Assembly: GCA_028715645.1 (NCBI GenBank)
Contig: JAQURK010000001.1
Coordinates: 17,806 to 81,805 of the forward strand
Direction: 5' to 3'
Length of the DNA stretch: 64,000 bases
From: Candidatus Omnitrophota bacterium
GTDB taxonomy: Bacteria > Omnitrophota > Gorgyraeia > JABMQH01
In this document: positions 36,732-58,707 of the stretch, piece after piece
How positions within the stretch are numbered: the stretch's first letter is position 1
Layout: every line of letters starts with the position of its first letter
Notes under the pieces: generated by a model
Databases searched by the model: none
Seen by the model: the letters and a program-made list of their open reading frames with translations, nothing else
What the model was told of the DNA's origin: nothing
Position numbers and translations under genes: made by a program

Positions 36732-38535
36732 TTATTTCATAAACATCTGTATCACCAAAGTTTTTAATAAACTTTAAACCTGGCAGCCTTTTCCTCTTAA
36801 TCTTCTCAAATTCATCTGCTATCTCTATATCGTTAGATTCGGCATAACCGCTTGCATGGATGATCACATATTTAACACTCAACCAATTCAACACCCTCGC
36901 TGTCCGTGGGTCGGATAATTTCCAGATGCTTTTCGCAATGCTGTTGCCAAACGTTCCGGGGCTTGTCCCATTTATTATCTTCTTCTCATGTATGGTCTGG
37001 CAGAACTTGTAATACTCATTAGGGCTTTCAGTATCCAAAGGATATTCCGCAATAGCAAAATCGCCCTTTTCCTGCTTTAGCCAATCATACACCCTTGGGT
37101 ACTTTGACATATCTATGATTTTGAACGGGGGGAAATTCAAAAATTCAAATAAAACCAACGCGCACATTAAAGACGCGAACGCTGTCTTGGCCCTATTGTT
37201 TTTGAACCTTTCAAGTATAAATTTTAGCCCAAATCCCGCCAGGACCGAAATCGCGAGCATTACAACTATGCCGAACCTGCAATAGGCCCTGAACATCGGT
37301 AATATCTTATACATAAAAAATGACGGCATATAAATCTTAAAATACGGAAATGTAAAATACGGCGGCTGGGAAAACAGCCATGCGACAAACGCAAGCCACA
37401 CAAAGAAACCAATATAAAAATCATCGTCATTGCTAGGAAGCTGCCGAAGGCGGCTGACGAAGCAATCTCTTTTTTGAGATTGCTTCGCCCCTTCGGGGCT
37501 CGCAATGACGGACATTGTCTTTCGCCTTTTTCTCCAATTTCTACATGCGATAAACGCAAGGATAATCGGCGTCCACCCCAAATACAACGTATGCTCCGTA
37601 TAGCTGACCCCATATAATGGAGAACCGATAAGCCCTTCACTAAATTTTCCAAAAACGGGATGCGTGGTCGCAGGTAATAAATAGCTAAGCGGCTTGGCTG
37701 ATTGCGTAAAAAGATCCTGGAAGGACCTTATATAACCTTTACTCAGCAGTTCCTGTGCACTTACAGGATGTAAATAACCACCTGCTATTCTAATTAATAT
37801 GGGAGATAGAACCAGAAGCATTGCTAAGCAGGATACTATTAAAAAACACACAAAGCGATAAGGGGGTTTTTTAAATATTTTTAATGAATATACTATCTCA
37901 TAAACAACAAACAGCGAAACTGCTACGCTCATAAAATACGTATAATAATAGTCAAAAAAGGCAACGAGTAAAAATGCCACAGCACAAAAAATAACATTTT
38001 TTAAACTCTGCTTTTCTCTAAGCTTAAAAATGGATAATATTAAAAGTGGCATCCACTGAATCTGGGCAAGGCCGAGGTGCTGCCATATCCTAACAAAATG
38101 ATATGGAAGGAATGCATAAATAACACCTGAAATAAATGCTGAGGCCCTATCTTTGGTCATAAACAGAACCAGCCAATACATAAACACCGCCGAGAGAATA
38201 AAAGACAAAAATACCTGCGCATTATATGTAAAAATAGGGTTTGTCAACATGGAAATCCAGCGGGTCAGGAAAAGCCAGATGGGATAAAAATTTGTGCCAT
38301 GTTTAAAATTCACACCAAATGGAAAAGATATATACGAACATTCGCCGAAATCATCCGTCTTATTATGAAAGCAGCGCTTCTGCCACCAGTAATACCATAT
38401 ACTGGCCTGTGGCTCATCGGTGTTTTCAAATCCGGGAATGGCGGAATTAATTTTAAGTACAAGCGGATATGTAAAAACAACTGTTGTCATTACAATAAAC
38501 AATAGAAATACCAGCGTTGTTTTTTTCATTTCCAC
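36697..38535 (-). CDS. Large polytopic membrane protein, GT-C/YfhO-like
   Basis: 612 aa, many TM segments, periplasmic C-terminal domain. Contains a palindromic in-frame segment at 37443-37497. Confidence 0.5.
   Translation of the reverse strand: MEMKKTTLVFLLFIVMTTVVFTYPLVLKINSAIPGFENTDEPQASIWYYWWQKRCFHNKTDDFGECSYISFPFGVNFKHGTNFYPIWLFLTRWISMLTNPIFTYNAQVFLSFILSAVFMYWLVLFMTKDRASAFISGVIYAFLPYHFVRIWQHLGLAQIQWMPLLILSIFKLREKQSLKNVIFCAVAFLLVAFFDYYYTYFMSVAVSLFVVYEIVYSLKIFKKPPYRFVCFLIVSCLAMLLVLSPILIRIAGGYLHPVSAQELLSKGYIRSFQDLFTQSAKPLSYLLPATTHPVFGKFSEGLIGSPLYGVSYTEHTLYLGWTPIILAFIACRNWRKRRKTMSVIASPEGAKQSQKRDCFVSRLRQLPSNDDDFYIGFFVWLAFVAWLFSQPPYFTFPYFKIYMPSFFMYKILPMFRAYCRFGIVVMLAISVLAGFGLKFILERFKNNRAKTAFASLMCALVLFEFLNFPPFKIIDMSKYPRVYDWLKQEKGDFAIAEYPLDTESPNEYYKFCQTIHEKKIINGTSPGTFGNSIAKSIWKLSDPRTARVLNWLSVKYVIIHASGYAESNDIEIADEFEKIKRKRLPGLKFIKNFGDTDVYEIIAGQAGAHTNE
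37443..37497. repeat. Long palindrome inside a CDS
   Basis: CGAAGCAATCTC-TTTTTT-GAGATTGCTTCG (perfect 12-bp stem) extended by GCCGAAGG / CCTTCGGGGC. It encodes a hydrophilic loop (PEGAKQSQKRDCFVSRLRQ). Confidence 0.4.
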
Positions 38536-39569
38536 ATTTGCTTTCCGTATATATAAGGGATTTTAAAAAATACATTCGGGACAAGTTTAAAAGTATCGCA
38601 CTTACTGCAGCTCGGTAACTTACTGTAATTACTCTCTTTCTGCATTTTTCTTATATTAAGGATTTTGGAATTATTCGAAAAATATATACCAAAAAGTGTC
38701 TGATTTAGCACATTACCCAATAATAAATCTTTTATAGGCTCATTTGAATAATAAGCAGCATCGCACGGGTAGACATCGCCGTTTATCCTTACCGCCATCC
38801 TGCTCCAGCACTGCGCGCATGGATAGAGATTTGGCCAACTCCCTTCGCATTTCAGAGCAGAAACATCTATTATACCCGCATGCGTCACGGGCTCGTGAAC
38901 GAAAACCTTATCCTGACCCCCTATTTTGCCTTTCCAGAAACTTATGCCTTTTGCCAGAGAAGGGTTGGTCTTTATCGTCTTAATAAATTGAATATGCAGG
39001 ACGGGGATATTTGATTTTAATTCTTTTCTGATTTTTAAAAAATTCTGCATATTTTCAGTAACTTTTTCATATAAATCTGCGCCCATCAATTCCCTATATG
39101 ATTCTCTGTCTGCGGCATTAATACTTACCGTAATTTCATCTACCCCTGCCTGAATAAGGTCATAGGCCCTCTTTTCTGAAAGCGCAACTGCATTAGTTGT
39201 AAAACTAAATTTTATTTCATCGCTGATCTCTTTAACACGCGCCACCAAATCTATTAGGCCGTGGTACAAAAGGGGATCACCTAAGCCATTTGTCATAAAA
39301 ACAATTTTTTTGCCGGATTTAAACAGATCCCGTATCTCTTTTAAGACTTTATCCAGTACCTCAGGCATAATATCTTCTGATTTAAAATTACCGTCTTTTA
39401 CCCAGGTTGTCCTGGAGCACATTTCACAGAGAAGATTACACCGCGTAGTAACTTCACAATTTACCGAATAAATAGAATTAAGCATAGAAAACCTGTAGAA
39501 CAGCCTTACCGGAAGGCTATTCTTAATTAAATTGAGATTTTCTGGGGGTATCAATTTTCTCAACAGCAT
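38526..39569 (-). CDS. Radical SAM enzyme with C-terminal SPASM/twitch-like Cys cluster
   Basis: CNLLCEMC (CxxxCxxC) near the N-terminus. C-terminal CEGSW...CAQCWSRM...YPCD. Confidence 0.8.
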   Translation of the reverse strand: MLLRKLIPPENLNLIKNSLPVRLFYRFSMLNSIYSVNCEVTTRCNLLCEMCSRTTWVKDGNFKSEDIMPEVLDKVLKEIRDLFKSGKKIVFMTNGLGDPLLYHGLIDLVARVKEISDEIKFSFTTNAVALSEKRAYDLIQAGVDEITVSINAADRESYRELMGADLYEKVTENMQNFLKIRKELKSNIPVLHIQFIKTIKTNPSLAKGISFWKGKIGGQDKVFVHEPVTHAGIIDVSALKCEGSWPNLYPCAQCWSRMAVRINGDVYPCDAAYYSNEPIKDLLLGNVLNQTLFGIYFSNNSKILNIRKMQKESNYSKLPSCSKCDTFKLVPNVFFKIPYIYGKQMWK

Positions 39570-40534
39570 TCTAATTTTATCCTGGGCGTGTAATTTAACT
39601 CTCTTTTCGCCTTAGCCGAAGATAGGCATAGATCCGCTATGGGACTTTTAGCTATAAGGCGCACCATTGGTGACCACGGTATGATACGCCCGAATAAATA
39701 CATAATCCTTAATAAGGTAATTGGTATCCTAAAAGGGGCAACCTCTTTATTTAATTTTTTGGCGGCTATTTTCAGATAATCTCCCGCTGAAATATTCTCG
39801 CCCCCTAAAATATATTCCTCTCCTGCCTTGCCGTAAAGGGCTGCTGATATTATGCCGTTAACTAAATCTTCAACCGCAACATAATTAAAAATCCTGTCTG
39901 AGGGACCTATAAGATTCATTAAACCACCAGGGATACCTCCGCCTATTCTTTCCCATAAAAATCTCTGCAGGCCAAAAGATTTAACAGGCATCGAGGAAGA
40001 GAAATCCGCAGGGTCTATCACTGCGGTCGGATAGACAACCACCACCGGCAAGATAGTCTTAGCCTCCCGCACTAATCTTAGGGCCTCTATCTTTGTCTGA
40101 AGATAATAGTCATATCCGCAAAAATTTTTCTGCAGCCACTTTTCATCTCTTTCGAGTTTGCCGGTAGGTTCAAAAACCGCTGCCGTTGAAACATAGACAA
40201 ACTTCTTAACTCCTGCATTCTTGGTAATCTCTAAAATGTTTTTTGTTCCGCCTATGTTTATCTCATTAAACTTATTTAGTCTATTGTCAGCAATATTCTG
40301 ATAGACTGCCAGGTGAAAGACATATTCGCAGTCCGCCATGGCTTCTTTTATGACCACGTTATCGTTTATGCCGCCCTTTATTATTTTTACATTACCAATC
40401 TGCGGCCACAAGTTATCGCCTTTCCTGGTTAATACCTTTACGAAAAATTCTGAAGAGGAAAGTTTCTCAACCAACAAGTGTCCTATTTTCCCTGTCCCAC
40501 CCGTAACAAAAACCCTCTTATCTTCTACGGCCAT
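39560..40534 (-). CDS. NAD-dependent epimerase/dehydratase (SDR family)
   Basis: VFVTGGTGKIGHLLVEKL and catalytic YLQTK. Confidence 0.8.
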   Translation of the reverse strand: MAVEDKRVFVTGGTGKIGHLLVEKLSSSEFFVKVLTRKGDNLWPQIGNVKIIKGGINDNVVIKEAMADCEYVFHLAVYQNIADNRLNKFNEINIGGTKNILEITKNAGVKKFVYVSTAAVFEPTGKLERDEKWLQKNFCGYDYYLQTKIEALRLVREAKTILPVVVVYPTAVIDPADFSSSMPVKSFGLQRFLWERIGGGIPGGLMNLIGPSDRIFNYVAVEDLVNGIISAALYGKAGEEYILGGENISAGDYLKIAAKKLNKEVAPFRIPITLLRIMYLFGRIIPWSPMVRLIAKSPIADLCLSSAKAKRELNYTPRIKLECC

Positions 40535-41758
40535 TTATGCCCTTTGATTCTTAATAACCTTAGAAAAAATTTCATCCACCCTCTTGTCCCAGTTCCACTC
40601 GTGGGCCCATTCAATCGCGTCCTTGCGTACCTTATCAAATAAATCTTTATTCGATAGGAGGTTCAAAATATTCTTTGCGAATAATTCAAAATTAAAGCAG
40701 GGCGTTTTTATCATCCCTTTTGGATAATATGTCTTCAAAGACTCTAAATTAAAACTGACTGCTGGCAAACCGCAGGCCATAGCTTCACAGGACGCCATTC
40801 CTCCGGAATCGTACGTAGCCGGATGGACTACGATTTTTGCGGATTTCAATAGCTCAATTTTTTCAACCCCATCTACATAGCCATGCATGGATACGCTATT
40901 CTGAAACCCGAGTGCAGTTATTTTATCCTCTATATCTTTTTGCAACGATCCATAGCCTATGATCAAAAGTTTCGCCTCTTTTTTACCGGCCAATACAATC
41001 CTCCATATATCTAATAATCCTAGAACACCCTTCTGCGGATGAAACCTGCCTATGAAAACTGCGTCATATTTTTTAATGGCTGGCTCTGGCACCGAATCGG
41101 ATAGGGTGCAATCAACACCTCCGCGGATAACTATAATTTTGTTTTCGCCACGTTTTTCTGTAATAAATCTATCTACATCTGGCTGGCTCGTAACGAAAAC
41201 AGTATCAGCAAATATTTTTACCAGTAAATAAACCGGATACTGCGATATATAAAATATAAGCCCCCTTAGAAAATTCTTTCCCTTGTAGGGGTTGTTTTTG
41301 TCAAACGGATTTGGCGCGGAAAGATAAAAACCTGCGATCCATCTGGACCTAGGATACAATCTGTTCATAAGCCAGCCGGGAATTGCATCCGGCCAGAAAT
41401 CAGAGGTCGAATAAACTATTGCCCCGCTTGCTTCAGCTCCTTTGCCCTGTAATTTTAAACTTAGCACATTCAGAGCACCTTTTATGGTCAATACTGTATA
41501 AAATACGGCCAGACCAAGTTTTTTATATTTGCCGCCCTTTAAAATAAAATAATTGGCCTTATCCAGCCCATTCCTGATACAGGTGGTATATCCCTGCTCC
41601 GTAACAAATATATTTATGCCTACACCTTCCAGCCTCAGCCATCTGCGCGCGATTTCAATAAATATCCTTGTACCACCGCACATACCCTCATCGCCCATGG
41701 TATAAGCGATCATACTTATGATGATCTTATTATTTGGCATTATTCTTCCTGTAATCAA
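40535..41758 (-). CDS. Glycosyltransferase family 4 (GT-B)
   Basis: C-terminal VHPATYDSGGMASCEAMACGLPAVS EX7E-type motif. Confidence 0.8.
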   Translation of the reverse strand: MITGRIMPNNKIIISMIAYTMGDEGMCGGTRIFIEIARRWLRLEGVGINIFVTEQGYTTCIRNGLDKANYFILKGGKYKKLGLAVFYTVLTIKGALNVLSLKLQGKGAEASGAIVYSTSDFWPDAIPGWLMNRLYPRSRWIAGFYLSAPNPFDKNNPYKGKNFLRGLIFYISQYPVYLLVKIFADTVFVTSQPDVDRFITEKRGENKIIVIRGGVDCTLSDSVPEPAIKKYDAVFIGRFHPQKGVLGLLDIWRIVLAGKKEAKLLIIGYGSLQKDIEDKITALGFQNSVSMHGYVDGVEKIELLKSAKIVVHPATYDSGGMASCEAMACGLPAVSFNLESLKTYYPKGMIKTPCFNFELFAKNILNLLSNKDLFDKVRKDAIEWAHEWNWDKRVDEIFSKVIKNQRA

Positions 41759-42761
41759 TTATTTTCTGTACGATACAATTCTCATCCAACAAATCCATAC
41801 AGTTAGGTTTTTTATCACAAATTACTTTCTTCATGCAGCACAAGCAGTCCATGTGGAGAGAAACTGCCTCGCCCTTTGAATAGAATTCAATTTCCTGCGG
41901 TGGCGTAGGCCCGAAAAACGCTATCGTATACTTTCCCAAGTATATACTTATATGCATCGCAAGTGTATCTGCAGAAACAACTACATCGCATATATTTATC
42001 AGCGAAGAGAATCTGCGCAGGGAACTATGATAGCCGGAATCAATAAGTTTCCTGTCCGCCTGTTGCCTTATTATCCTGTTCCGCTCGCATTCCTTCTCCC
42101 CACCAAACAGCACGACCTTGAATTTTTCTTTTATCAGTTTATCAATAAGCTTGACTGTCTTATCCAGCGGCATCTCTTTGAGGGGCCAGCGCCTGCCTGC
42201 GCTTGTATTGATACCCACCACGATATCTTTATCTAGATCAATCCTGTATTGTCTTGCAAAATCCAGCCCGTCTTTTTCTTCCTGTTTCGTAAGCTTCAGC
42301 ATGGGTTTATATTTTGAACTATAGGGGATATCTATAATATCGCACATGATCTTCTGGTAGCTGAACTGATTTTTTTTCTTCAACAGATCACGATCTTCTC
42401 CTCCCAACAGGCTCATGGCCATCCAATAACCAGTCCTTTCGGTTCCTAGTATTTTACCATCCTTAAGATAATACCCGAACCTTTTCCCTTTTAAATCGCT
42501 CGCAAGCTGGCATGCATCCCAGTCCTCATCCAGGTTAATAATTAAATCATATTCGGATTTTTTAAATTCTTCTGTCAGTTCCGACTCAACATATATCTTG
42601 TCTATCAGCGGATGGTTCTCCAAGATAGGCTTGGACAAATCGGTGGTTATCCAGTAAATCTTTGCATCCAGATATTTTTCCTTAAGGGCCGGCAGTATGG
42701 CCGTTGTTCTTAAGACATCCCCTATTGCGGCGTATTTGATGACTACTATTTTTTTACTCAT
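41730..42761 (-). CDS. GT9 heptosyltransferase-family glycosyltransferase (third copy)
   Basis: MSKKIVVIKYAAIGDVLRTTAILPAL N-terminal GT9 motif. Confidence 0.75.
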   Translation of the reverse strand: MSKKIVVIKYAAIGDVLRTTAILPALKEKYLDAKIYWITTDLSKPILENHPLIDKIYVESELTEEFKKSEYDLIINLDEDWDACQLASDLKGKRFGYYLKDGKILGTERTGYWMAMSLLGGEDRDLLKKKNQFSYQKIMCDIIDIPYSSKYKPMLKLTKQEEKDGLDFARQYRIDLDKDIVVGINTSAGRRWPLKEMPLDKTVKLIDKLIKEKFKVVLFGGEKECERNRIIRQQADRKLIDSGYHSSLRRFSSLINICDVVVSADTLAMHISIYLGKYTIAFFGPTPPQEIEFYSKGEAVSLHMDCLCCMKKVICDKKPNCMDLLDENCIVQKIIDYRKNNAK

Positions 42762-45335: not shown

Positions 45336-46364
45336 TTACCATTTTTTCCTGCTCAAGGGTCTTGAAATAAAAAGACTCTCCACGCTTGAAGCGGCATATA
45401 TAAATAAGGTTATAACGCATGCGGGGATATGAAAAAACCAAGCTGCGTCCCTCTTCTTGGCATAGCTCCTTATGGCCTGCAAAACCAGGGGAAATACTAA
45501 AATGCTGTAGAACGTAAACTTTATCGCGCCAGCAACGCGCATGCCGCCCCATTTGTACCTTCGCAGCCCAAGTTTCTTATAATATTGGTAGTCCCTTACG
45601 CGGCGCGTCTGCTTGTGTATAAACCTGGAGAGGCCACCCGCGAATATGTGAATGATACCGACTTTGACCTTCGCGACCTTCAGTTTATAACCCATGGACG
45701 AGAGCTCATAAAGCAGGTCGATGTCAAATAGATAATTTTCCATCTTACATTTGTCTAAAACATTTTTACGTATAAAAAAACCGTTGGCGCCAATGGTGGG
45801 CATATGTTTGCCGTTTAACTCAATCTTCAGATAATCGCCCTTGTCTTCTTCTTTGCGCGGCATGTCTGTCCATCGTCCGGTCAGGGTGCTGCGCCTGTCA
45901 TAATTGCCCAAAAAGAGGCATAGGGGGTCATTCATACCCAGGAGGGCGCTGTAGCGCGTAACATAGCCGTCGCTTTTCCTGTAGGTATATTCAAGCGGTT
46001 CGCTCGCTATAATCTCCCCATCGGAGAAAGGCTCAACCATCCTTCGCATCCAGCCTTGAGAGGGCAAAATGTTATCGCTGTCAATGAATGCGATTATTTC
46101 TCCTGAGGAGGCCTTCGTGCAAACCGCCTTCCCTGCCTCCCCCGTCCTTAACGGATTATCCAGGATTTTCAAACTAACACCGCTGTTATAGTCGGCGGAT
46201 ATTGATTTAATTATTTCTATTGTTCTGTCTATTGAGCCGCCGTCCGCGATAACGATCTCAATTTTATCTTTTGGGTAATCCTGCAAAAAAATGCTTTCAA
46301 GACACCGCCCTATGGTATTTTCGGCATTCAGGGTTGGTATATCGACAGAGACCGCGGGAAACAT
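45336..46364 (-). CDS. GT2 glycosyltransferase with C-terminal TM segments
   Basis: VSVDIPTLNAENTI...IADGGSIDRT, DSD motif. Confidence 0.75.
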   Translation of the reverse strand: MFPAVSVDIPTLNAENTIGRCLESIFLQDYPKDKIEIVIADGGSIDRTIEIIKSISADYNSGVSLKILDNPLRTGEAGKAVCTKASSGEIIAFIDSDNILPSQGWMRRMVEPFSDGEIIASEPLEYTYRKSDGYVTRYSALLGMNDPLCLFLGNYDRRSTLTGRWTDMPRKEEDKGDYLKIELNGKHMPTIGANGFFIRKNVLDKCKMENYLFDIDLLYELSSMGYKLKVAKVKVGIIHIFAGGLSRFIHKQTRRVRDYQYYKKLGLRRYKWGGMRVAGAIKFTFYSILVFPLVLQAIRSYAKKRDAAWFFHIPACVITLFIYAASSVESLFISRPLSRKKW

Positions 46365-48855: not shown

Positions 48856-50216
48856 CTCTTGAGTTTTGTCATAAAGGAGTCGAAAACATTACTTATAAAA
48901 AGGCGCTCATCCTTCGTTATGCCGGGATAAACGCCTATCCAAAACAGATTATTCATAACCATGTCGGAGTTCTTCAAAGAACCAAAAATTTTGTACTTAA
49001 CATCCCGATAGGCCGGCTGTCTTGTGAGGTTTCCGCCGAACAACATACGGGTGGCAATCTTGTTTTTTCCCAGGTAGTTTACAATTTCATTCCGCGTAAA
49101 CGGGACATCACCCCTAACCAAAATCGGAAAGCCGAACCATGATGGTTTTGAATGTTTCGCGGGGCGCGGTAAAATAAAGTATCTTTCATATTTCACCAGC
49201 GCCTTTTGAAAGAATTGAAAATTTTCCTGTCTCTTTCTAATGAATCCGCGCAGTTTTTCGAGCTGTGCGCATCCGATAGCAGCCTGCATATCCGTAATTT
49301 TCAAATTATACCCAATATGAGAATACACATATTTATGGTCGTATCCGTAAGGGAGTTTGCCCAATTTTTGCGAAAACCGCTTACCACAGGTATTGTCATG
49401 GCCCGGTTCGCACCAGCAAAACCTGCCCCAGTCTCTTAGTGACAACAATGCCTTTTGCAGGTCAGGATCGCGCGTCAAGACCGCTCCCCCCTCACCCATT
49501 GTTATATGGTGGGCAGGGTAAAAACTGCAGGTTGAGATATCTCCAAAGGTCCCCGTATACCTTTCCTTGTATTTTGAACCCAGGCCGTCGCAGTTATCCT
49601 CAATAAACCAAAGGTTATGCCTTTTTGCAACCTGTAAAATCCTTTCAATGTCCATGGGATTGCCAAGGGTATGGGGAACAAAAATTGCCCTGGTTTTTTT
49701 AGTCACAGCCCTTTCTATTTTTTCCGCTTGAATATTATATGTCCCTAGCTCTACATCAATGAATACTGGGATTAACCTGTTTTGTATAATAGGATTGAGC
49801 GTCGTAGGAAAGCCGCAGGCAGTAGTAATCACCTCATCCCCCGGCCTTAATCGTCTTTCCTTTAATAAAGGCGAGGTTAGCGCTGACACTGCCAGAAGAT
49901 TTGCTGATGAGCCTGAATTAGTTAAAAGGCAGTATTTGACCCCCAGAAATTCGGCGAATTTATTCTCAAACTCTTTGGCATATCTACCCGAAGTAAGCCA
50001 AAAATCAAGCGATGAATCAACCAGATTAATCAATTCAGCGGAGTCGTAGACCCTTGTTGCATAGGGAATTGCGGTCTTGCCCGGGATGAATTCTTTATCT
50101 ACACCTTTGGCCTTATGGAACTTTCTGATTAATTTAAATATTTCTTTTTTGATATTGTTTTCCGATGTCATAACTGTTACCACCCGGGTTCTTCCAATAA
50201 ATTGCAAGTCTTGCAA
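48852..50216 (-). CDS. ddhC: CDP-6-deoxy-D-xylo-4-hexulose 3-dehydrase (E1), DegT/DnrJ family
   Basis: DegT-family fold with His replacing the PLP-lysine (FYPAHHITMGEGG), plus FCWCEPGHDNTC (C-x-C-x7-C), the diagnostic E1 [2Fe-2S] motif. Confidence 0.85.
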   Translation of the reverse strand: MQDLQFIGRTRVVTVMTSENNIKKEIFKLIRKFHKAKGVDKEFIPGKTAIPYATRVYDSAELINLVDSSLDFWLTSGRYAKEFENKFAEFLGVKYCLLTNSGSSANLLAVSALTSPLLKERRLRPGDEVITTACGFPTTLNPIIQNRLIPVFIDVELGTYNIQAEKIERAVTKKTRAIFVPHTLGNPMDIERILQVAKRHNLWFIEDNCDGLGSKYKERYTGTFGDISTCSFYPAHHITMGEGGAVLTRDPDLQKALLSLRDWGRFCWCEPGHDNTCGKRFSQKLGKLPYGYDHKYVYSHIGYNLKITDMQAAIGCAQLEKLRGFIRKRQENFQFFQKALVKYERYFILPRPAKHSKPSWFGFPILVRGDVPFTRNEIVNYLGKNKIATRMLFGGNLTRQPAYRDVKYKIFGSLKNSDMVMNNLFWIGVYPGITKDERLFISNVFDSFMTKLKR

Positions 50217-51205: not shown

Positions 51206-52138
51206 TTAAAAATTTATACGCTCTTTTTCAATAACCATCGGCCTCTTTAAAACCTGGGTATGTATCGAGCCTACATATTCGCCGATTATCCCTATAAATA
51301 CCATTTGCATAGAAGCAAAAAAGAAAAAGCCGATAACTAACGGGGCGATCCCGAGAGAAAACCTGTTCCAGAATAAAAGTTTATATACAAGATATCCCAG
51401 GGCCACCAGGAAGCATAATAAAGCTGAAAAAAATCCCAGCATGGTAGCGAGACGAAGGGGTATCTTGGAATGGCTGGTGATACCCAGCATTGCGTAATCA
51501 TAAAGAATATAGAAATTATTCTTTGTAATTCCCCACTTGCGTTTGGGTTGTATATACGGTATTTCGGCGCGCTCAAAACCTATTTCACAGATGAGGCCGC
51601 GAAAATACGGCAGCGGATCATCGAGTTTGCGTATAATCTTAATTACCTCCTGATCGTACAAGCCGAATCCTGTGAAATTTTTGATAAGCTTGATGTCGGA
51701 TAGGCCGCCGATAAGGTTGTAATAGGCGTTCTTAAAAATATTCAGTATAGGGGATTCTTGACTTTGGATCCTCACACCCACTACAATCCTGTAACCTTCC
51801 TCCCATTTTTTTATGAAGTCTACTATCATCTCTGGGGGTTGTTGCATATCTGACACTATGCTTATAACAGCGTCTCCCTGGGCCTGTAACATCGCATAAA
51901 CAGGTGATCTCAGCTGGCCGAAATTTCTGGTATTTAATATCACCTTTATATTTCTATCCTGCCTTGCGATATCTCTTAATATTTCCTGAGTCCTGTCTCT
52001 GGAATCATTATCAATAAAGATATGTTCGTAACTATATCCCTTAAGATCCGAAAAAATATTCTTTATCCGGCTATAGATTTCCTGTATGTTGCCTTCTTCA
52101 TTATAACATTGCGTAACAACACTAATATGCTTCACCAT
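51206..52138 (-). CDS. GT2 polyprenyl-phosphate glycosyltransferase (GtrB/ArnC-like)
   Basis: ISVVTQCYNEEGNI...IFIDNDSRDRT and two C-terminal TM helices. Confidence 0.8.
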   Translation of the reverse strand: MVKHISVVTQCYNEEGNIQEIYSRIKNIFSDLKGYSYEHIFIDNDSRDRTQEILRDIARQDRNIKVILNTRNFGQLRSPVYAMLQAQGDAVISIVSDMQQPPEMIVDFIKKWEEGYRIVVGVRIQSQESPILNIFKNAYYNLIGGLSDIKLIKNFTGFGLYDQEVIKIIRKLDDPLPYFRGLICEIGFERAEIPYIQPKRKWGITKNNFYILYDYAMLGITSHSKIPLRLATMLGFFSALLCFLVALGYLVYKLLFWNRFSLGIAPLVIGFFFFASMQMVFIGIIGEYVGSIHTQVLKRPMVIEKERINF

Positions 52139-53118
52139 TTTCTCCTCTCAGCTTGTATTTCGCTTGTCTTCCCTTCTCCATTCTCATCGTCTTTTATGAA
52201 ATATTTTTTGCGTAACTCTTTTGCGTAGTTCAAGTAAAGATCTTCTTTAATGGCATTGACGTCTAGGGTATTTTTAATTTTTTTATAGTGACCAGATAAA
52301 TCGGCTATCGCCCTCTCATATGTAGTAAATTGGAACTTTCCTATTTCAGAAATAAGCCTTTTGTTGTCCCCCGAATACTCAACTCCGACTCCTGGATTTA
52401 ATACTCTTATTTCACATTTATGGTCGCTTACTTTATTAACCAGGCCAGCGATTGTCAGCAAATCAATCGATTCTGTCGGGGTGATATTAAAAATTTTTTC
52501 CTTCGTTTTATTGTTTACAAAGTATACAACTATCTTATAAAGGTCATTACTATATAAATAATCATAAATAACATTTTGATTGATGACTATAGGCATACCA
52601 AGTAGATTTTTCACTATTGAGTTAGATATAAATTTATAACGATAATTCTCGTCTTTCCCGAATATACCAAATATTCTAAAACAAATTAAATTTTCGCTGT
52701 TTGTGTCTTGAATATATTTTGAAATCAAGTATTTTGAATAACTATGGCTATCTTCGGGAATGTATTTGCCAAAATATTCTTCGGACATCTTTTTGTACCA
52801 ATGGCTCCTTGAATACTCTGAACCGCTGCCTAAATTTATCATTTTCATGGAAGGCGTCATATGTCTTTCTATATTAAAAAACATGCGTAAATTATTTTCA
52901 CATGTATTTACGGGGTAAGACGTACCATTTCTTGATGTTGTTGCACAATGTATAATAGTTTCAATATGGTTTTTTTTAAAATATTTGCCTACCTCATTGG
53001 GGTTTGTCAGATCTAGCTCATCTTTAGATGGAGATAATACTGAATATTTGTCTTTTAAAAATAACTCCACTAAATTGCGACCGACAAAACCTCCCGATCC
53101 AGTTATTAAAATACTCAT
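52132..53118 (-). CDS. NAD-dependent epimerase/dehydratase (SDR)
   Basis: MSILITGSGGFVGRNL and YLISKY catalytic motif. Confidence 0.7.
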   Translation of the reverse strand: MSILITGSGGFVGRNLVELFLKDKYSVLSPSKDELDLTNPNEVGKYFKKNHIETIIHCATTSRNGTSYPVNTCENNLRMFFNIERHMTPSMKMINLGSGSEYSRSHWYKKMSEEYFGKYIPEDSHSYSKYLISKYIQDTNSENLICFRIFGIFGKDENYRYKFISNSIVKNLLGMPIVINQNVIYDYLYSNDLYKIVVYFVNNKTKEKIFNITPTESIDLLTIAGLVNKVSDHKCEIRVLNPGVGVEYSGDNKRLISEIGKFQFTTYERAIADLSGHYKKIKNTLDVNAIKEDLYLNYAKELRKKYFIKDDENGEGKTSEIQAERRKW

Positions 53119-54179: not shown

Positions 54180-54183
54180 TTTT

Positions 54184-55329
54184 CTATCCCCCTTTTATAA
54201 ACTCAATTTTATTTCCCTGCAGCACCGCAATATTTACACCAGCATTCATCTGCATCAGTGTTTTCAACACTTCACCTGGATAAAGTCCCGGCACCATGAC
54301 TATCACTAAATCTACTTTCCTTTCCTTCAAATACTCCGGAGCTACTATATTCAAATGTAAAATAGGAGTAACCCTTCCCTGCTTAAACTTTGCCGAGTCG
54401 ATTATATATTCAATATTTTTTAACTTGCTTAATGCTAACAATGCAAGCGTCCTATGGCCCGCACCCCAGACGGCTACTTTTTTATTTTGTGATTTGTAGT
54501 CACTAACAACCTGCTGTAAATTTTTAATAAGTTTTTCCACTTCACTAAAATCTCTGGAAATATCTAAAACTTGCCTCTTTTTCACTATGAGCGCGATATC
54601 ATTATCCTCATTAATTGTATAGCACTCCAATACCTCAAAGCCATTCATTTCAAAAGCATGGGTTAATGTCGTTTTAGTGAAATATGAAAGGTGGTCAGCG
54701 ACAAATTCATTAAAACATTTTGTTTTTAACAAATAATCCAAATTGGGAACACTTACAAACCCTGCGGCGGCGGCGGATGCATTGTTATATATCGTTCCGA
54801 TAATATGTCCGGGATCGGGCAAATGTTCCAGGTAATTTAATAAAACAAAGGCGCCAAATGGATGGCCTGGTATTTTATCCATGTCTCCAATATAACCTTT
54901 AATCATTTTTCTACCGGCGGATTTCCCAATCGCGACCGATTCAGACGAGGCCTCGATCCCAACTGCCTTTAAACCCGCCTCTTCCAAGACGTCCAGCATG
55001 TGGCCCTCGCCGCTGCCGACCTCTATAACCTTTTTTCCCTTTAACCCGAATTTATTAACAAACCCCTGTATTTGCGAAAGCCTGGCCATCCTTGTCTTAG
55101 GGGAGAACGACGCGGCAGTAATTACTTTTTTAAAATATTCTACAGGCCTGGTATTTATCTGAACTAGACCGCAGGCAGAACATTGGTATATGTTCAAGGT
55201 TATCCCTTTATCCTTTTTAAATTCATTTTTTTTCGGAAAATATTGGGCGGCCTTTGGCATTCCGTTTAATCGCAATAATGGGCGCGGAAACAAGCCGCGG
55301 CCGCATAAGCGGCATCTATTAGGATTCAT
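54184..55329 (-). CDS. SAM-dependent sugar C-methyltransferase (TylC3-like) with N-terminal zinc ribbon
   Basis: CRLCGRGL...CSACG zinc ribbon. VIEVGSGEGHMLD SAM motif. C-methyltransferase-type C-terminal domain. Confidence 0.8.
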   Translation of the reverse strand: MNPNRCRLCGRGLFPRPLLRLNGMPKAAQYFPKKNEFKKDKGITLNIYQCSACGLVQINTRPVEYFKKVITAASFSPKTRMARLSQIQGFVNKFGLKGKKVIEVGSGEGHMLDVLEEAGLKAVGIEASSESVAIGKSAGRKMIKGYIGDMDKIPGHPFGAFVLLNYLEHLPDPGHIIGTIYNNASAAAAGFVSVPNLDYLLKTKCFNEFVADHLSYFTKTTLTHAFEMNGFEVLECYTINEDNDIALIVKKRQVLDISRDFSEVEKLIKNLQQVVSDYKSQNKKVAVWGAGHRTLALLALSKLKNIEYIIDSAKFKQGRVTPILHLNIVAPEYLKERKVDLVIVMVPGLYPGEVLKTLMQMNAGVNIAVLQGNKIEFIKGG

Positions 55330-55353
55330 GACAAACTCCGGTTTTTCTTATTT

Positions 55354-56136
55354 TCAGACATCAAGTCTTTTCTCAAGCATTGCGATTCTCTTTTCGTCTT
55401 CGTTTGTGACGCGGTGATAGTACCGCCTTTTACTCTTTAGCCAAAGAAGCTCAAATTTTATGCCTAAGGGAAGCCCCTTCGAGATATTCTTAATCGCGTT
55501 TTTATGATAGACCAATTTCCGCGTTTCAAATTTACCTAAAAGATTTTCTGATATAATGGTCTCTATAAAGGGTACGCTCTCAATCGAAATGGCCCCGCCA
55601 AGCGCGGTCTTTAAGCCCTTTTCCTTCGCCTTCTGAAAAACATCAAGACAGTATTTTAACATCTCATCGCTGTTCACAAAATTCCTGTCGGCGCCGAGGG
55701 AAGCGGTAAAGTCTACCCTTCCCACGGTTATACCGCTCAACAGGCCTATCTTATCTACATTCAATATCTCGTCTATATTACGGTATGCCGTAATCGTTTC
55801 AATATTAACTGCAAACTCGATATCCTTCTGATTATCTTCGGGCACAAAGGTGTCAATCGCGCTTAAAAATTTACTCACGGCAAAAGCGGTTTCAGCCATC
55901 GGGGCGATAATCCCCCTCGCCCCTAGTGAGAGGGCCTCGTATATGTCGGTTACGGCCTCCACCCCGCCAATTTTCAGGATTAAAGGCAATTGCGCCATAT
56001 TCGCTACGTCCTTTAATCTCATCAACTCGACCAGCCGGCTGCCTTCATTTTCATATTCCGCCTTGATCTCAAAAACGCCGTACTCATTTTTTAATTTTTT
56101 CAACAATTCGATCATTTCATATTCCAAAACATTCAT
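55354..56136 (-). CDS. HpcH/HpaI aldolase / citrate-lyase beta-like protein
   Basis: TIM-barrel aldolase motifs (GARGIIAPMAET...). Associated with the downstream TPP enzyme. Confidence 0.7.
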   Translation of the reverse strand: MNVLEYEMIELLKKLKNEYGVFEIKAEYENEGSRLVELMRLKDVANMAQLPLILKIGGVEAVTDIYEALSLGARGIIAPMAETAFAVSKFLSAIDTFVPEDNQKDIEFAVNIETITAYRNIDEILNVDKIGLLSGITVGRVDFTASLGADRNFVNSDEMLKYCLDVFQKAKEKGLKTALGGAISIESVPFIETIISENLLGKFETRKLVYHKNAIKNISKGLPLGIKFELLWLKSKRRYYHRVTNEDEKRIAMLEKRLDV

Positions 56137-56918
56137 TTCCCCTCCTTAAGATATTGCAGTAATTTATGAAGATTTTCAATAATAAGAACATCCCGCTTTA
56201 AAACACTGCCTTTTAGGCCGATTAAAATTGCCTTACTGTTATAGTTCAAGGCCATTACAATATCGCTTTCATATGAATCACCCACTACCATAATCTCATG
56301 GGGTTTAACTCCAAAGGTTTTTGAAATCCTGGATAAAATATATGTGTTCGGTTTTCCAACAATAAAATCCGGTCTTCTATTTGCGGATGCGGCTATTGCC
56401 CCTACCATCGCGCCGCAGCCGGGCATATATTTGTTTTTTTCGACCGGGAAAAAATTATCTTCATTGCACGCAATAAACCTGCCCCCTTTCAATAAGACCG
56501 AGAGGGCGGTTGCTATCTTTTTATAATTAAAATCAAGGTCAAGGCCGACAACAAGGTTTCGCGCCGAAGCATTATCCATAATCCTGAGGCCGCTGTTTTT
56601 AATTTCCCTGCGAAGGCCACGAGAACCAACCACATACAAATTATCTATTCCTGACTCGTTAAGATAAAAGGCCGTCAGGGCAGAAGAGGTATAGAGTTCG
56701 CTCAGTCCGCACTTAATCCCCAGCCTGTTTAATTTTTCGCTCACTTCTCTTTTTGTCCTCGAGGAGTTGTTTGTGAAAAATACAACCTTATACCTTTTTC
56801 TTAAATAATCAACAAGTTCGATTGCGCCTGTAATAACGTCTCCTCCCATATAGAGGGTGCCGTCCAAGTCAAGCGCAAACAGCTTTATCTTCCCGGCGCA
56901 TTCAAACCTTTTCCGCAT
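56133..56918 (-). CDS. HAD-superfamily hydrolase, subfamily IIA
   Basis: FALDLDGTLY motif I, FFTNNSSR, and a C-terminal GD motif. Confidence 0.8.
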   Translation of the reverse strand: MRKRFECAGKIKLFALDLDGTLYMGGDVITGAIELVDYLRKRYKVVFFTNNSSRTKREVSEKLNRLGIKCGLSELYTSSALTAFYLNESGIDNLYVVGSRGLRREIKNSGLRIMDNASARNLVVGLDLDFNYKKIATALSVLLKGGRFIACNEDNFFPVEKNKYMPGCGAMVGAIAASANRRPDFIVGKPNTYILSRISKTFGVKPHEIMVVGDSYESDIVMALNYNSKAILIGLKGSVLKRDVLIIENLHKLLQYLKEGK

Positions 56919-58707
56919 CCGTATCCTTTTTGATCATATTTAAATAAAATTCATCCCGCGCAAGAAGGGGGGAAAGATCTTCCAACGGCCTTGATATGAT
57001 TCGCCCGTCCGCCATTTTTTCCGACGACAATTTGGGGGCAAAGACATAATCCTTATTCAAAATAACTTCGCAGATCAATCCTGTCCGGCAAGACAAAATA
57101 TCCTTAATTACCATTCCCATCCTAGCGGTGGAATTTATTCTAAAATAATTTAAGCCGTATAAATCCGCGACCTTGGAGAAATCCGGAAATGAGACACCCG
57201 ATTCCTTATTACAGCCTATAAATTTCTTATTAAAAAATTCTGTTTGAGTCAGCTCAATTGAGCGGTAGCCTTGATTATTTAAAATAAATATTTTTATCGG
57301 CAGATTATAGTGCCTTATGGTCTGAAATTCCTGAATATTCATCTGAATGCTGCCGTCGCCTGCGATACAAACTATGTCCTTATTCCCCGCCAGGGCGGCG
57401 CCGATGGAAGCGGGCAAATCATACCCCATCGAGGCGCAGCCGGAATTCCAAAAAATACGCTGCCCTGTCTTGACAATGCCTGCTTGAAACAGGCCAACAC
57501 ACGCGGTTCCGTTTCCGGCGATGATAATAGCATCATCATCCAGAGCGGCCGTCAATTCTTCAACAAAATGGTAGGGGTGAACGGACGATTCGCTTTGGGT
57601 TTTGTATTCATCCAAAACAACAGGATATCTTTTCTTAAGGCTGCGGCACCGTTCAAGCCATGATTTATCAATTTTGAGACCTTTTTGGATTCTTTCCAAT
57701 AACATGGTTATAAAAACCTTTGCGTCAGAATGAACCAGTAGGTCGCCTTTTAATGTTTTTTTACGCAGCTCCGCTTCGTCAATATCAATGACTATTTTCA
57801 TTGCGCGACTGGCAAATGAGGCCCAGTTGTAGCTGACCTGCCTGATATTATTTCTGGTTCCAAGGCATATAACAAGGTCCGCGTTTTGAAGGGCAAAATT
57901 TCCTGCGCGGCTTCCGAGCGTCCCTATCCTGCCGATAAAATTATCTGAATTGGAGGCGATTAAATCGAATCCATTAAATGTGGTGACGACGGGGATGTCC
58001 AATAACTCAACCAGTTTCAAAAACTCTTTTTTGGCCTTTGCAATCCTGATACCATGTCCGGCAATGAATAGCGGCCGTTTGGCCTTTTTAAGCTCTTTAA
58101 TAACAACCGCCATGACTCCGTCTTCTGCCGCCTGCGGAATATAATTCATTTTATCGCCCTGAAGATTCCGTTCATCAATCAACGCCCCTTGAATATTCAA
58201 TGGAATATCCAGCCATACCGGCCCCGGCCTTCCCGAGGTAGCGGTATAAATGGCCCTGTCTAATTCCATTTTTATGGCATCGGGCTCAGTCACCATCTTT
58301 GCATATTTGGTAACCGGCTTTACAATATCAATTATATTAATCTCCTGATCGCCCAATTGGCGTAAGCGGTTGCCGGGATCAGACGCGATGGTTGTTTCAT
58401 ATTTTACTTGGCCGGAAAGGTATAATACGGGGACGGAGTCAAGCCACTGCCCAACAACCCCTGTTAAGGTATTGGTTCCTCCGGGGCCAGATGTAACACT
58501 AACAACCGCCAACCCTCCCTTTGTTCTGGCATACCCTTCCGCCGCAATCGCAGCCGCCTGCTCATGGTGGGCGCACACATATTTAATTCGTTTTTCCTTT
58601 TGCAAGGCGTCATTTAGATGCATCGCGCCGCCGCCAACCACAAGAAAGACATGCCTAATCCCATAATCGGCTAAATAGTTAAAGATATAATCAGCTACCC
58701 TTATCAT
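56902..58707 (-). CDS. Thiamine-pyrophosphate enzyme, acetolactate-synthase large-subunit-like (YerE-like candidate)
   Basis: 601 aa with N-terminal TPP-Pyr, central and C-terminal TPP-PP domains (GDGS...N motif). Confidence 0.85.
   Translation of the reverse strand: MIRVADYIFNYLADYGIRHVFLVVGGGAMHLNDALQKEKRIKYVCAHHEQAAAIAAEGYARTKGGLAVVSVTSGPGGTNTLTGVVGQWLDSVPVLYLSGQVKYETTIASDPGNRLRQLGDQEINIIDIVKPVTKYAKMVTEPDAIKMELDRAIYTATSGRPGPVWLDIPLNIQGALIDERNLQGDKMNYIPQAAEDGVMAVVIKELKKAKRPLFIAGHGIRIAKAKKEFLKLVELLDIPVVTTFNGFDLIASNSDNFIGRIGTLGSRAGNFALQNADLVICLGTRNNIRQVSYNWASFASRAMKIVIDIDEAELRKKTLKGDLLVHSDAKVFITMLLERIQKGLKIDKSWLERCRSLKKRYPVVLDEYKTQSESSVHPYHFVEELTAALDDDAIIIAGNGTACVGLFQAGIVKTGQRIFWNSGCASMGYDLPASIGAALAGNKDIVCIAGDGSIQMNIQEFQTIRHYNLPIKIFILNNQGYRSIELTQTEFFNKKFIGCNKESGVSFPDFSKVADLYGLNYFRINSTARMGMVIKDILSCRTGLICEVILNKDYVFAPKLSSEKMADGRIISRPLEDLSPLLARDEFYLNMIKKDTDAEKV

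Follow-up and report, generated by a model that had tools for sequence, protein, structure and literature searches.

A radical SAM-rich lipopolysaccharide locus of an Omnitrophota bacterium is a mosaic of a conserved backbone and an inserted cassette with a probable branched-sugar pathway

Radical S-adenosylmethionine (SAM) enzymes that tailor sugars are known from antibiotic pathways, with GenK, AprD4, DesII and BtrN as examples. The 64,000-nucleotide stretch of a Candidatus Omnitrophota genome analysed here (GenBank assembly GCA_028715645.1, contig JAQURK010000001.1, positions 17,806 to 81,805; this whole stretch is called the window below, and positions are counted from its first letter) raises the question of what five radical SAM genes are doing in a lipopolysaccharide (LPS) locus, next to a thiamine diphosphate (ThDP)-dependent enzyme and a sugar C-methyltransferase. 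An initial annotation had answered that all of them serve a single, undescribed pathway to one heavily tailored dideoxysugar. Here, comparison with loci from other genomes and metagenomic contigs (numbered L001-L109) revealed a different arrangement: the locus is a mosaic in which one cassette has been inserted into a conserved glycan-assembly backbone, and only two of the five radical SAM genes, a core one (S3) and an accessory one (S2), belong to the cassette of the ThDP enzyme.

The five genes, denoted S1, B1, B2, S2 and S3 in order of position (Table 1), lie on the minus strand exactly where they had been placed, and all exceed the Pfam cutoff of Radical_SAM (PF04055; 49-92 bits against 29.5). 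No further radical SAM gene was found in the window by phmmer or a motif scan. The five are at most 32% identical to one another, over partial alignments only, and are therefore not recent paralogues. The subtype signatures announced for them held in part. With cutoffs of 21.5 bits for SPASM (PF13186) and 32.1 bits for B12-binding (PF02310), S1 and S3 fall into the SPASM/twitch subgroup and B1 carries the B12-binding domain of class B enzymes, whereas B2 scores below its cutoff and S2 narrowly below, the latter with conserved C-terminal cysteines. The CX3CX2C motif is present in four of the five, B2 having CWWGKCTFC, that is, CX4CX2C.

The genes of the window form almost wholly one minus-strand array. 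Because this array includes an O-antigen ligase, three genes of the GT9 heptosyltransferase family, a GT-C enzyme, a Wzx flippase, many glycosyltransferase (GT) genes of the GT2 and GT4 families, and RmlD-like, Gmd and GmhB-like genes, the region is an LPS core/O-antigen region, in agreement with the proposed glycan operon encoded on one strand. The sugar cluster is nevertheless wider than the limits first drawn (38526-58707), spanning at minimum the interval between about 32.4 kb and the end of the window (64 kb).

The mosaic nature of the locus is apparent from the surroundings of B2. L107 and L108 are the closest relatives (76-77% identity in B2), and in both of them the genes for Wzx, GT2a, GT2b and B2 are contiguous. 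After B2, L108 continues in window order with Gmd (80%, in the same position) and GT2 (62%), a pair that is swapped in L107, and further on with a GT4 (47%), a SPASM radical SAM gene (33% to S1, in the equivalent position) and a short-chain dehydrogenase/reductase (SDR) gene (64% to 39560-40534, and adjoining that radical SAM gene), ending in a large unannotated protein that is cut off at the end of the locus. In the window, B2 stands 12.9 kb downstream of GT2b, the two being split by 48852-61738. Given the contiguity of Wzx-GT2a-GT2b-B2 in L107 and L108, followed in L108 by Gmd and GT2 in window order, the window is an L108-like backbone with a 12.9 kb cassette (48852-61738) inserted between GT2b and B2. 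The window's Wzx is 57-68% identical to those of L107 and L108 and matches the cluster of ~420-amino-acid (aa) Wzx proteins found three genes upstream of B2, and the GT2 at 45336..46364 is 59-62% identical in the same two loci. More broadly, of 78 loci, 57 have a GT2b of ~327 aa directly upstream of B2, 41 a GT2a of ~261 aa two genes upstream and 26 a ~420-aa Polysacc_synt/Wzx protein three genes upstream; GT2b and B2 overlap by 4-8 nucleotides (nt) in L001, L107 and L108. The backbone, in which Wzx-GT2a-GT2b-B2 is module A and the GT4-SDR stretch is module C, reads Wzx, GT2a, GT2b, B2, Gmd, GT2, GT4, SDR, S1, a membrane protein and GT-C, and ends with the O-antigen ligase and heptosyltransferases. 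The membrane protein in this series (36697..38535), with homologues 34-45% identical in four B2 loci, is possibly a polymerase or a GT-C-like transferase. The G+C content drops to 0.34-0.37 at 51000-55000, where GT2_51, SDR52, S3 and the C-methyltransferase are encoded, and is 0.40-0.50 elsewhere; such a dip is consistent with a cassette acquired in part from a foreign source.

B2 belongs to a family that is widely distributed. The best 120 database clusters are 63-77% identical to it, the named ones almost all from Omnitrophota, and a scan of a collection with one genome per species confirmed at least 590 matching stretches. Hosts beyond Omnitrophota, with 53-69% identity, include Nitrospirota, Desulfobacterota, Chloroflexota, Actinomycetota, spirochaetes, Brevinematales, Firestonebacteria and several archaea. 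Across 119 sequences, 139 positions are at least 98% conserved; the CX4CX2C motif (C229/C234/C237, window 48145-48171) is invariant, and five further cysteines (150, 287, 303, 354 and 416) are conserved at 97-100%, hinting at an auxiliary cluster. The AlphaFold2 model of B2 (pLDDT 84.7, pTM 0.88) has an N-terminal alpha/beta domain and is closest in fold to AprD4 (template-modelling (TM) scores 0.73/0.80), followed by MgmA, TsrM and OxsB. Among curated families, HpnJ (TIGR03471) is the best for both B2 (130.5 bits) and B1 (124.6 bits), far under its cutoff of 577.6, and hopanoid synthesis genes are absent from the window; the AprD4 family (NF033070, cutoff 500) gives 83 bits for B1 and 29 for B2. 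Neither enzyme is thus a member of either family by score.

In the scheme that we favour, B2 and GT2b would act on a lipid-linked sugar, B2 by C-methylation, dehydration or an HpnJ-like rearrangement. A competing explanation holds that B1 and B2 are both cobalamin-dependent C-methyltransferases of the GenK/MoeK5/Fom3 type and not dehydratases or rearrangement enzymes. Such C-methylases, sugar methylases included, are the best-represented and most studied group of B12-dependent radical SAM enzymes (reviews), the B12-binding domain of B1 is clear, and MgmA and TsrM are among the fold matches of B2. However, AprD4, the best solved relative of both, shares the N-terminal domain and yet binds no cobalamin (B12-radical SAM review), the best curated family, HpnJ, is a proposed ring-contraction enzyme, and B2 combines its sub-cutoff B12-binding score with the atypical CX4CX2C motif and the five extra cysteines. 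Since the B12-binding score is below cutoff and AprD4 lacks cobalamin, a reading of B2 as a B12-dependent methylase is unproven, and we consider the C-methyltransferase explanation for the pair possible but doubtful.

Several further observations concern the vicinity of B2 and of its relatives. A SemiSWEET-type (MtN3_slv/PQ-loop) membrane protein of ~87 aa is encoded directly or closely downstream of B2 in about 15 loci (as the next gene in L012, L017, L020, L026, L049 and L055; also at 17041-17304 of L002) and is missing from the window module. A 117-aa gene of the bAvd/23S_rRNA_IVP family lies between GT2a and GT2b at 8674-9027 of L108. Finally, an aldehyde-dehydrogenase-like and a cytidylyltransferase-like gene (window 5410-7389) are located about 40 kb downstream of B2 on the same strand, whereas in many Omnitrophota (L002, L008, L055 and others) they are found 9-10 genes upstream of it, which points to a rearranged neighbourhood in the window.

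B1 is located in a variable GT4/GT9 segment. Scans of viral contigs found no relatives of B1 or S1, so that comparative context for both is slight beyond L108 and the representative search. B1 is part of a large, diffuse superfamily (of its 4198 representatives at E<1e-30, the closest is 56% identical and the rest at most 45%), has AprD4 as its best solved relative (6fd2, 73.6 bits), and lacks an orthologue in any locus with the inserted cassette. In 14 loci, B12-type radical SAM genes with the canonical motif, similar to B1, are found no more than 10 kb away from B2, and two or more radical SAM genes are present in 18 of 82. The best solved relative of S1 is BtrN (4m7t, 37 bits), and its L108 counterpart belongs to a backbone free of the inserted cassette.

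These distributions bear directly on the initial proposal of one linear pathway, shared by all five radical SAM enzymes, the ThDP enzyme and the C-methyltransferase, towards a single tailored dideoxysugar. In its favour, the genes lie in one gap-free, same-strand operon, and L088 and L109 demonstrate that five or six radical SAM genes can be housed within one sugar-nucleotide cassette. Nevertheless, B2 accompanies Wzx-GT2a-GT2b in most of about 80 loci, in nearly all of them without the ThDP module; the L108 counterparts of S1 and SDR39 reside in a backbone that lacks this module; B1 is missing from every other locus that has it; and the five enzymes are unrelated to one another. A single pathway employing all five is therefore unlikely, and the mosaic is preferred to this part of the proposal.

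Table 1. Features of the LPS locus in the window, ordered by position.
Feature	Coordinates	Strand	Evidence and remarks
O-antigen ligase (Wzy_C)	32460..33668	-	Pfam 77.4 bits; marks locus as LPS-related
GT-C fold glycosyltransferase (STT3/PMT/ArnT-like)	35112..36731	-	eight transmembrane-like segments
Polytopic membrane protein, 612 aa	36697..38535	-	no Pfam match; seven transmembrane-like segments
Radical SAM S1	38526-39569	-	Radical_SAM 72 bits, SPASM 34.3 bits; motif CNLLCEMC
SDR39 (HpnA-like), module C	39560..40534	-	overlaps S1 start by 10 nt
GT4 glycosyltransferase, module C	40535..41758	-	47% orthologue directly upstream of radical SAM/SDR pair in L108
GT9 (heptosyltransferase-family) glycosyltransferase	41730..42761	-	Pfam
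Radical SAM B1	42754-44142	-	Radical_SAM 83.7 bits, B12-binding 52.6 bits; motif CPFKCSYC
GT4 glycosyltransferase, variable segment	44139..45302	-	no orthologue in 80 loci
GT2 with two transmembrane segments, backbone	45336..46364	-	orthologues downstream of B2 in 11 loci
Gmd, GDP-mannose 4,6-dehydratase-like, backbone	46367..47359	-	Pfam 383 bits; TIGR01472 399 vs cutoff 415
Radical SAM B2	47356-48855	-	Radical_SAM 49.1 bits; B12-binding 26.7 bits, under 32.1 cutoff
RfbH/DdhC (E1), CDP-6-deoxy-4-keto-hexose 3-dehydrase	48852..50216	-	PRK15407 704 bits, cutoff 423
Radical SAM S2	50177-51205	-	Radical_SAM 52.5 bits; SPASM 21.3 bits, just under 21.5 cutoff
GT2_51, GtrB/ArnC/PgfS-like polyprenyl-phosphate glycosyltransferase, accessory	51206..52138	-	two C-terminal transmembrane segments
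SDR52 (NDP-sugar epimerase/reductase type)	52132..53118	-	YerF-like reductase candidate; recurrent S3 partner
Radical SAM S3	53139-54179	-	Radical_SAM 91.5 bits, SPASM 27.2 bits
TylC3/TcaB9-like sugar C-methyltransferase	54184..55329	-	best solved relatives TylC3 4rv9, TcaB9
Divergent HpcH/HpaI-family (class II pyruvate) aldolase-like	55354..56136	-	Pfam 37.6 bits, cutoff 25
HAD-IIA phosphatase	56133..56918	-	TIGR01460 subfamily 122.6 bits, cutoff 100
YerE-like ThDP-dependent carboligase, 601 aa	56902..58707	-	three TPP domains
NUDIX hydrolase, weakly GDP-mannose mannosyl hydrolase-like	58737..59231	-	Pfam/NCBIfam
MBL-fold hydrolase (RNase Z/phosphodiesterase-like), accessory	59249..59989	-	Pfam Lactamase_B_2; NCBIfam under cutoff
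Probable CDP-glucose 4,6-dehydratase (RfbG)	59986..60960	-	best NCBIfam TIGR02622, 234 bits vs cutoff 278
RfbF, glucose-1-phosphate cytidylyltransferase	60962..61738	-	TIGR02623 424.6 bits, cutoff 300
GT2b, membrane-anchored GT2	61735..62730	-	three C-terminal transmembrane-like segments; best NCBIfam MftF-like, 105 bits
GT2a, soluble polyprenyl-phosphate-type GT2	62754..63491	-	Pfam GT2 110 bits; no transmembrane segment; best NCBIfam PpgS, ArnC, AglJ, all under cutoff
Wzx-type (Polysacc_synt) flippase, C-terminal part	63493..64000	-	frame open to 63999; runs off window end

The inserted segment (module B) is a real, horizontally mobile cassette. Its neighbourhoods in other genomes were collected by exact-protein look-ups and a metagenome scan, which revealed the conserved order (RfbF-4,6-dehydratase)-NUDIX-ThDP-HAD-IIA-HpcH-C-methyltransferase-S3-SDR-RfbH, full or nearly so in L083, L090, L095, L098 and L102, partial in L085 and L104, and as fragments on short contigs. 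RfbF, the 4,6-dehydratase and E1 remain linked to the ThDP gene in seven related loci, and the 4,6-dehydratase is conserved beside RfbF in L083, L088 and L102. In L083, L090, L095 and L098, a NUDIX orthologue (64-73%) immediately precedes the ThDP gene; the HAD-IIA gene of related loci is invariably found between the ThDP and HpcH genes, and HpcH-like orthologues (52-82%) are present in all module B loci; the metallo-beta-lactamase (MBL)-fold hydrolase has a 49% homologue in L095.

Pfam and NCBIfam matches recovered all the flanking enzymes that had been named at the outset, namely the TylC3-like C-methyltransferase, RfbH/E1, the HAD phosphatase, the 601-aa ThDP enzyme, the MBL hydrolase and, more weakly, the HpcH-like protein. 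Judged by its scores against solved structures, the ThDP enzyme is YerE-like and not an acetolactate synthase, because it reaches 410 bits with JanthE (8rph), a YerE-like enzyme (PMC12188165), and at most 260 bits with any acetohydroxyacid synthase (AHAS); the kinship with YerE had been anticipated correctly. A genuine acetolactate synthase of branched-chain amino acid synthesis was rejected, as the score against the curated family is under cutoff (356 bits against 538), no small subunit is encoded and the enzyme is JanthE-like. A phosphoenolpyruvate (PEP)-mutase/phosphonate pathway was likewise rejected, since the HpcH-like protein has no PEP_mutase match and the ThDP enzyme differs from phosphonopyruvate decarboxylase in having an acetolactate synthase middle domain. 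Among solved structures, YfaU (2vws) is closest to the HpcH-like protein, and an acidic Glu/Asp pair is conserved in the alignment. The C-methyltransferase is of the TylC3/TcaB9 type, with Methyltransf_23 (57.6 bits) and Methyltransf_14 (53.4 bits) above their cutoffs and Methyltransf_13 (26.7 bits) below 31.3. RfbH displays the pattern Cys209-x57-Cys267-x-Cys269-x7-Cys277 and a His in place of the pyridoxal phosphate lysine ('PAHH'), which together we take to be the signature of E1 enzymes; its start is probably the ATG at 50171 (439 aa, as in homologues), 6 nt after the S2 stop, and not the TTG at 50216. By these assignments, the predicted route to a CDP-3,6-dideoxy-4-ketohexose is complete except for the E3 reductase.

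The gene set matches a published logic. Steitz et al. 2022 (PMC9306805) described a "unifying scheme for acyl-branched sugars", which accounts for long acyl-branched sugars of LPS by a ThDP enzyme of the YerE family, a pyruvate aldolase, the genes for CDP-4-keto-3,6-dideoxyglucose, a reductase and, in Rhodopseudomonas palustris, a SAM methyltransferase, five components in all. In that scheme, the aldolase supplies a functionalised 2-oxo acid, and MMAR_2331 is assigned to the aldolase/citrate-lyase family (PMC9306805), which is the name of Pfam HpcH_HpaI. More than 200 clusters for acyl-branched sugars have been predicted in silico, most with unknown products (later review). We therefore regard it as probable that module B encodes a YerE-type branched-sugar pathway. 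The description of the pathway as new consequently stands for its radical SAM decoration and not for the ThDP, aldolase, CDP-dideoxyhexose and reductase logic, which is published (PMC9306805).

On the strength of the family assignments and the published YerE/ErwE/MMAR_2332 scheme, we propose the following sequence, in which the substrates and the radical SAM chemistry are predicted throughout. RfbF, the 4,6-dehydratase and RfbH would yield CDP-4-keto-3,6-dideoxyglucose, the electrons for E1 presumably coming from the general ferredoxin/flavodoxin system because no gene for an E3 reductase is present. The HpcH-type aldolase and HAD-IIA would provide a functionalised 2-oxo acid, for which pyruvate and a phosphorylated aldehyde are possible starting compounds, and the YerE-like enzyme would add this acid decarboxylatively to C4 of the sugar. 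An SDR would then reduce the ketone of the branch and the TylC3-like enzyme would C-methylate. S3, which is always present, and the accessory S2 could contribute oxygen-independent radical tailoring of the sugar or its side chain; with the neighbouring SDRs, this would most likely be an AprD4/AprD3-like deoxygenation, or a BtrN-like oxidation with re-reduction, resulting in epimerisation. GT2_51 would finally attach the sugar to polyprenyl phosphate, from which a GT-C enzyme such as that at 35112-36731 would transfer it in the periplasm. The predicted product of module B is thus a C4 acyl-branched, C-methylated CDP-3,6-dideoxyhexose.

Alternatively, module B might make a small acyloin or hydroxy-acid substituent for the glycan, or its ThDP enzyme might use a ketone other than a sugar. 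In vitro, many ketones and aldehydes that are not sugars do serve as substrates of YerE-like enzymes, JanthE among them (review; PMC12188165), and the roles of the aldolase and HAD are unassigned. This option is nonetheless improbable, given that RfbF, the 4,6-dehydratase and E1, consistently linked to the cassette, constitute the acceptor-producing set of the published scheme (PMC9306805), and that Pfam identified no acyl/CoA ligase or acyltransferase in the cassette.

Within the branched-sugar pathway that we favour, S3 is the constant radical SAM component. Its family (57-92% identity over 120 clusters, with named members from Omnitrophica, Desulfobacterales, Elusimicrobia, Cloacimonas and Bacteroidales) occupies a fixed slot between the C-methyltransferase and the SDR: the order ThDP-HAD-HpcH-C-methyltransferase-S3 is kept in six further loci, and S3 and the SDR are adjacent in L084, L091, L097, L098 and L102. 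Cys49/53/56 and Cys90/259/277/313 are conserved at 99-100% and Cys261 at 88%, a pattern that suggests one auxiliary cluster, twitch-like. Foldseek searches with the S3 model (AlphaFold2, pLDDT 91) returned SkfB, SuiB, PqqE, MoaA, BlsE, EpeE, anSME and viperin, with TM scores of 0.5-0.6. On the Elusimicrobia-like contig L084 (10001-12071), orthologues of S3 (75%) and of its partner SDR (60%) were found otherwise without the module.

S2 represents a third tight family, besides those of B2 and S3 (58-75% identity, ~340 aa), with ten conserved cysteines, seven of them C-terminal and compatible with two auxiliary clusters. The 342-aa S2 frame aligns over 99% of its length; since the public annotation of the window copy gives 291 aa against ~340 aa in the family, the public start is probably mis-called. 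Five loci were examined for S2 (L086, L087, L088, L089 and L109), and in each of them it is part of a sugar cluster. In the Polyangia loci L086 and L087, the order is YfhO-S2-split transketolase-SDR/GT2 fusion, and in L089 (Nanoarchaeota) SDR-S2-B12-radical SAM-GT2-SDR-split transketolase-B12-radical SAM-methyltransferase. L109 carries a variant of module B, with ThDP (75%), HAD, HpcH, C-methyltransferase (76%), a different SPASM radical SAM gene, SDR and another radical SAM gene, and then GT2_51 (77%), a B12-radical SAM gene, a methyltransferase, S2 (69%), a B12-radical SAM gene, RfbH (65%) and Wzx. In L088, a NeuB-cupin, a HAD and a ThDP enzyme stand beside RfbF, the dehydratase and six radical SAM genes, with NeuB replacing the HpcH aldolase; by analogy, this would support a phosphorylated 2-oxo-acid precursor that is made, dephosphorylated and passed to the ThDP enzyme. 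Both L088 (1435-15817) and L109 (1-14059) thus combine a YerE-like ThDP enzyme with five or six different consecutive radical SAM genes.

In view of these contexts, the interval between the SDR and RfbH is a variable slot, which houses GT2_51 and one to four extra radical SAM and methyltransferase genes. GT2_51 has orthologues (62-77%) in L090, L095 and L109 and aligns over its full length with PgfS (187 bits) and ArnC (119 bits), both under cutoff; these alignments and its two C-terminal transmembrane segments suggest that polyprenyl phosphate is the carrier to which it links the completed sugar before transfer in the periplasm.

None of the five radical SAM enzymes reaches the cutoff of a curated NCBIfam family. 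For the SPASM types, MoaA, AhbD or a tungsten-cofactor maturase comes closest, with 60-106 bits where the cutoffs are 231-500; the best MoaA-model scores are 60-97 bits against 231-325, and MiaB/RimO and HemW give about 19-22 bits. By curated family score, membership in MoaA, MiaB/RimO, HemW, LipS and other housekeeping families is therefore absent, and every maturase model is likewise far under cutoff. Consecutive reading frames from 36.7 kb to the window end are separated by only -29 to +33 nt, which leaves no room for a precursor-peptide gene, in keeping with what had first been noticed. With no cutoff reached and no precursor frame, the five are neither housekeeping enzymes of the MiaB, RlmN, QueE or MoaA type, a check that the initial annotation had itself named, nor maturases of ribosomally synthesized and post-translationally modified peptides (RiPPs). 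That the SPASM-type enzymes mature peptides or proteins (RiPP, anSME-like or metalloenzyme) or are lineage housekeeping genes beside glycan genes would accord with the usual association of SPASM domains with peptide modification, with SkfB, SuiB, PqqE and anSME among the fold matches of S3, and with the S3-family gene beside complex I genes in L084, but it is very improbable in view of the absent precursor space, the distance from any NCBIfam maturase, MoaA, MiaB or QueE cutoff, the recurrence of S3 in the same sugar-cassette slot and of S2 in sugar clusters, and the lack of a sulfatase or other target protein encoded nearby.

By sequence comparison, the B2, S3 and S2 families are each tight, at 53-92% identity across phyla. 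In nearly all of the loci examined for it, the B2 family is part of a glycan cluster, as are the S2 and S3 families in most of theirs, and all three are good candidates for oxygen-independent sugar tailoring. A pairing of radical SAM with SDR genes is recurrent, S3 and SDR52 being adjacent even in L084 and S1 overlapping SDR39. Moreover, the structural neighbours AprD4 (of B1 and B2) and BtrN (of S1) have sugars or cyclitols as substrates, which counts in favour of the proposed scheme. It is probable, to about the same degree as the branched-sugar pathway itself, that the radical SAM enzymes act on glycan intermediates, while any particular chemistry named for one of them is doubtful at best.

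Several points weigh against the scheme. The YerE-like assignment of the ThDP enzyme derives from a single comparison, that with JanthE. The HpcH aldolase match is weak, and a Lys of this protein aligns where we take the catalytic Arg of YfaU to be. No E3 (DdhD/AscD) reductase was found, with Fer2, FAD_binding_6 and NAD_binding_1 absent among essentially all reading frames of the window and E3 likewise absent from the gene tables of L083 and L085; S2 was considered as a substitute for E3 and rejected, as nothing supports it. The fold matches of S3 are generic for SPASM/twitch enzymes and do not separate chemistries, and S3 and its SDR in L084 lie directly downstream of a complex I/hydrogenase-like operon with no sugar genes nearby. 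To these may be added the sub-cutoff B12-binding score of B2, whose best structural match does not bind cobalamin. No family member was found from an organism with a known glycan structure. On balance, we lean towards the explanation as a whole, comprising the mosaic locus, the cassette pathway and the role of B2.

Outside the sugar cluster, the first 23 kb of the window hold housekeeping genes (PGK, TIM, GAPDH, PriA, Fmt, Def, ArgRS and Mfd). Two tandem, diverged GalT-like genes (galactose-1-phosphate uridylyltransferase/HIT-family, DUF4921) at 15564-17577 adjoin GAPDH, PGK and TIM, and an 896-aa protein encoded at 8011-10701 has a faint match to the Ig-like Big_3_3 as its only one. This protein falls in a stretch (9000-12000) of low G+C content (0.42) with a briefly positive GC skew, although its gene shares the strand of its neighbours.

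Our findings bear on enzymology and genome mining alike. Three tight, cross-phylum radical SAM families with fixed positions in glycan cassettes provide concrete starting points for enzymology, and a nine-gene minimal cassette such as that of L102, together with the four-gene Wzx-GT2-GT2-radical SAM module, is suited to the discovery of new branched sugars and of new carbohydrate chemistry that needs no oxygen. The published rule by which genomes are mined for acyl-branched sugars is extended to uncultivated anaerobes, and surface-glycan diversity in Omnitrophota emerges as generated by the insertion of whole sugar-pathway cassettes into a conserved backbone. More tentatively, and with somewhat less than even confidence, anaerobic bacteria and archaea may possess a widespread and hitherto unrecognised glycan-tailoring radical SAM toolkit of two parts, namely remodelling of lipid-linked sugars by HpnJ/AprD4-like B2 enzymes with a membrane GT2 in Wzx-dependent O-antigen assembly (ring contraction to a carbocycle, deoxygenation or C-methylation), and deoxygenation or epimerisation of YerE-type acyl-branched CDP-dideoxyhexoses by pairs of a SPASM/twitch radical SAM enzyme and an SDR. 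If so, the products of these pairs would be higher-carbon branched sugars absent so far from characterised LPS.

Our literature searches yielded no account of radical SAM enzymes with a functional role in clusters for O-antigen, capsule or S-layer glycans and nothing relevant on such enzymes in Omnitrophota, and two recent reviews of B12-radical SAM enzymes present no glycan or polysaccharide cases. The closest published systems are the YerE/ErwE/MMAR_2332/MyGE pathways (yersiniose, erwiniose, caryophyllose and gastriose, and the O-antigen cluster of R. palustris CGA009; PMC9306805). The acyl-branched scheme and module B have in common the YerE-like ThDP enzyme, RfbF, the 4,6-dehydratase and E1, the pyruvate-aldolase family, an SDR and the location in LPS clusters, and the R. 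palustris cluster shares the SAM methyltransferase as well. In contrast, module B alone has an always-linked SPASM/twitch radical SAM gene (S3, or another SPASM radical SAM gene in L109), the HAD-IIA gene between ThDP enzyme and aldolase, the NUDIX gene and optional further radical SAM genes; it lacks an E3 reductase, its hosts are uncultivated anaerobes and its product is predicted only.

Characterised counterparts can also be named for B1, B2 and S1. AprD4 and AprD3, which carry out the C3' deoxygenation of apramycin, combine a radical SAM 1,2-diol dehydratase with an NADPH-dependent reductase, a logic that resembles the radical SAM/SDR pairs of the window. B1 (by sequence) and B2 (by predicted fold) are similar to AprD4 in having a Rossmann-like N-terminal domain followed by the radical SAM barrel, and the substrate of AprD4 is a carbohydrate; however, there are no aminoglycoside genes in the window, and its SDR-paired radical SAM enzymes are of the SPASM type. 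In hopanoid cyclitol-ether formation (HpnI/HpnK/HpnJ), a GT2 is followed by a B12-type radical SAM enzyme that is proposed to contract the ring of a lipid-linked hexosamine. B2 and B1 align with HpnJ over nearly the full length, and B2 is coupled to a membrane GT2 as HpnJ follows HpnI, although the context of B2 is Wzx-dependent glycan assembly without hopanoid genes. BtrN (2-deoxy-scyllo-inosamine dehydrogenase), a twitch-domain enzyme, is S1-like in its auxiliary Fe-S domain and has a sugar-like alcohol as substrate, whereas S1 has a longer SPASM-type C-terminus and belongs to an LPS locus. Compared with these systems, the branched-sugar core is what was known already, and the radical SAM decoration and the Wzx-GT2-GT2-radical SAM module are what is new.

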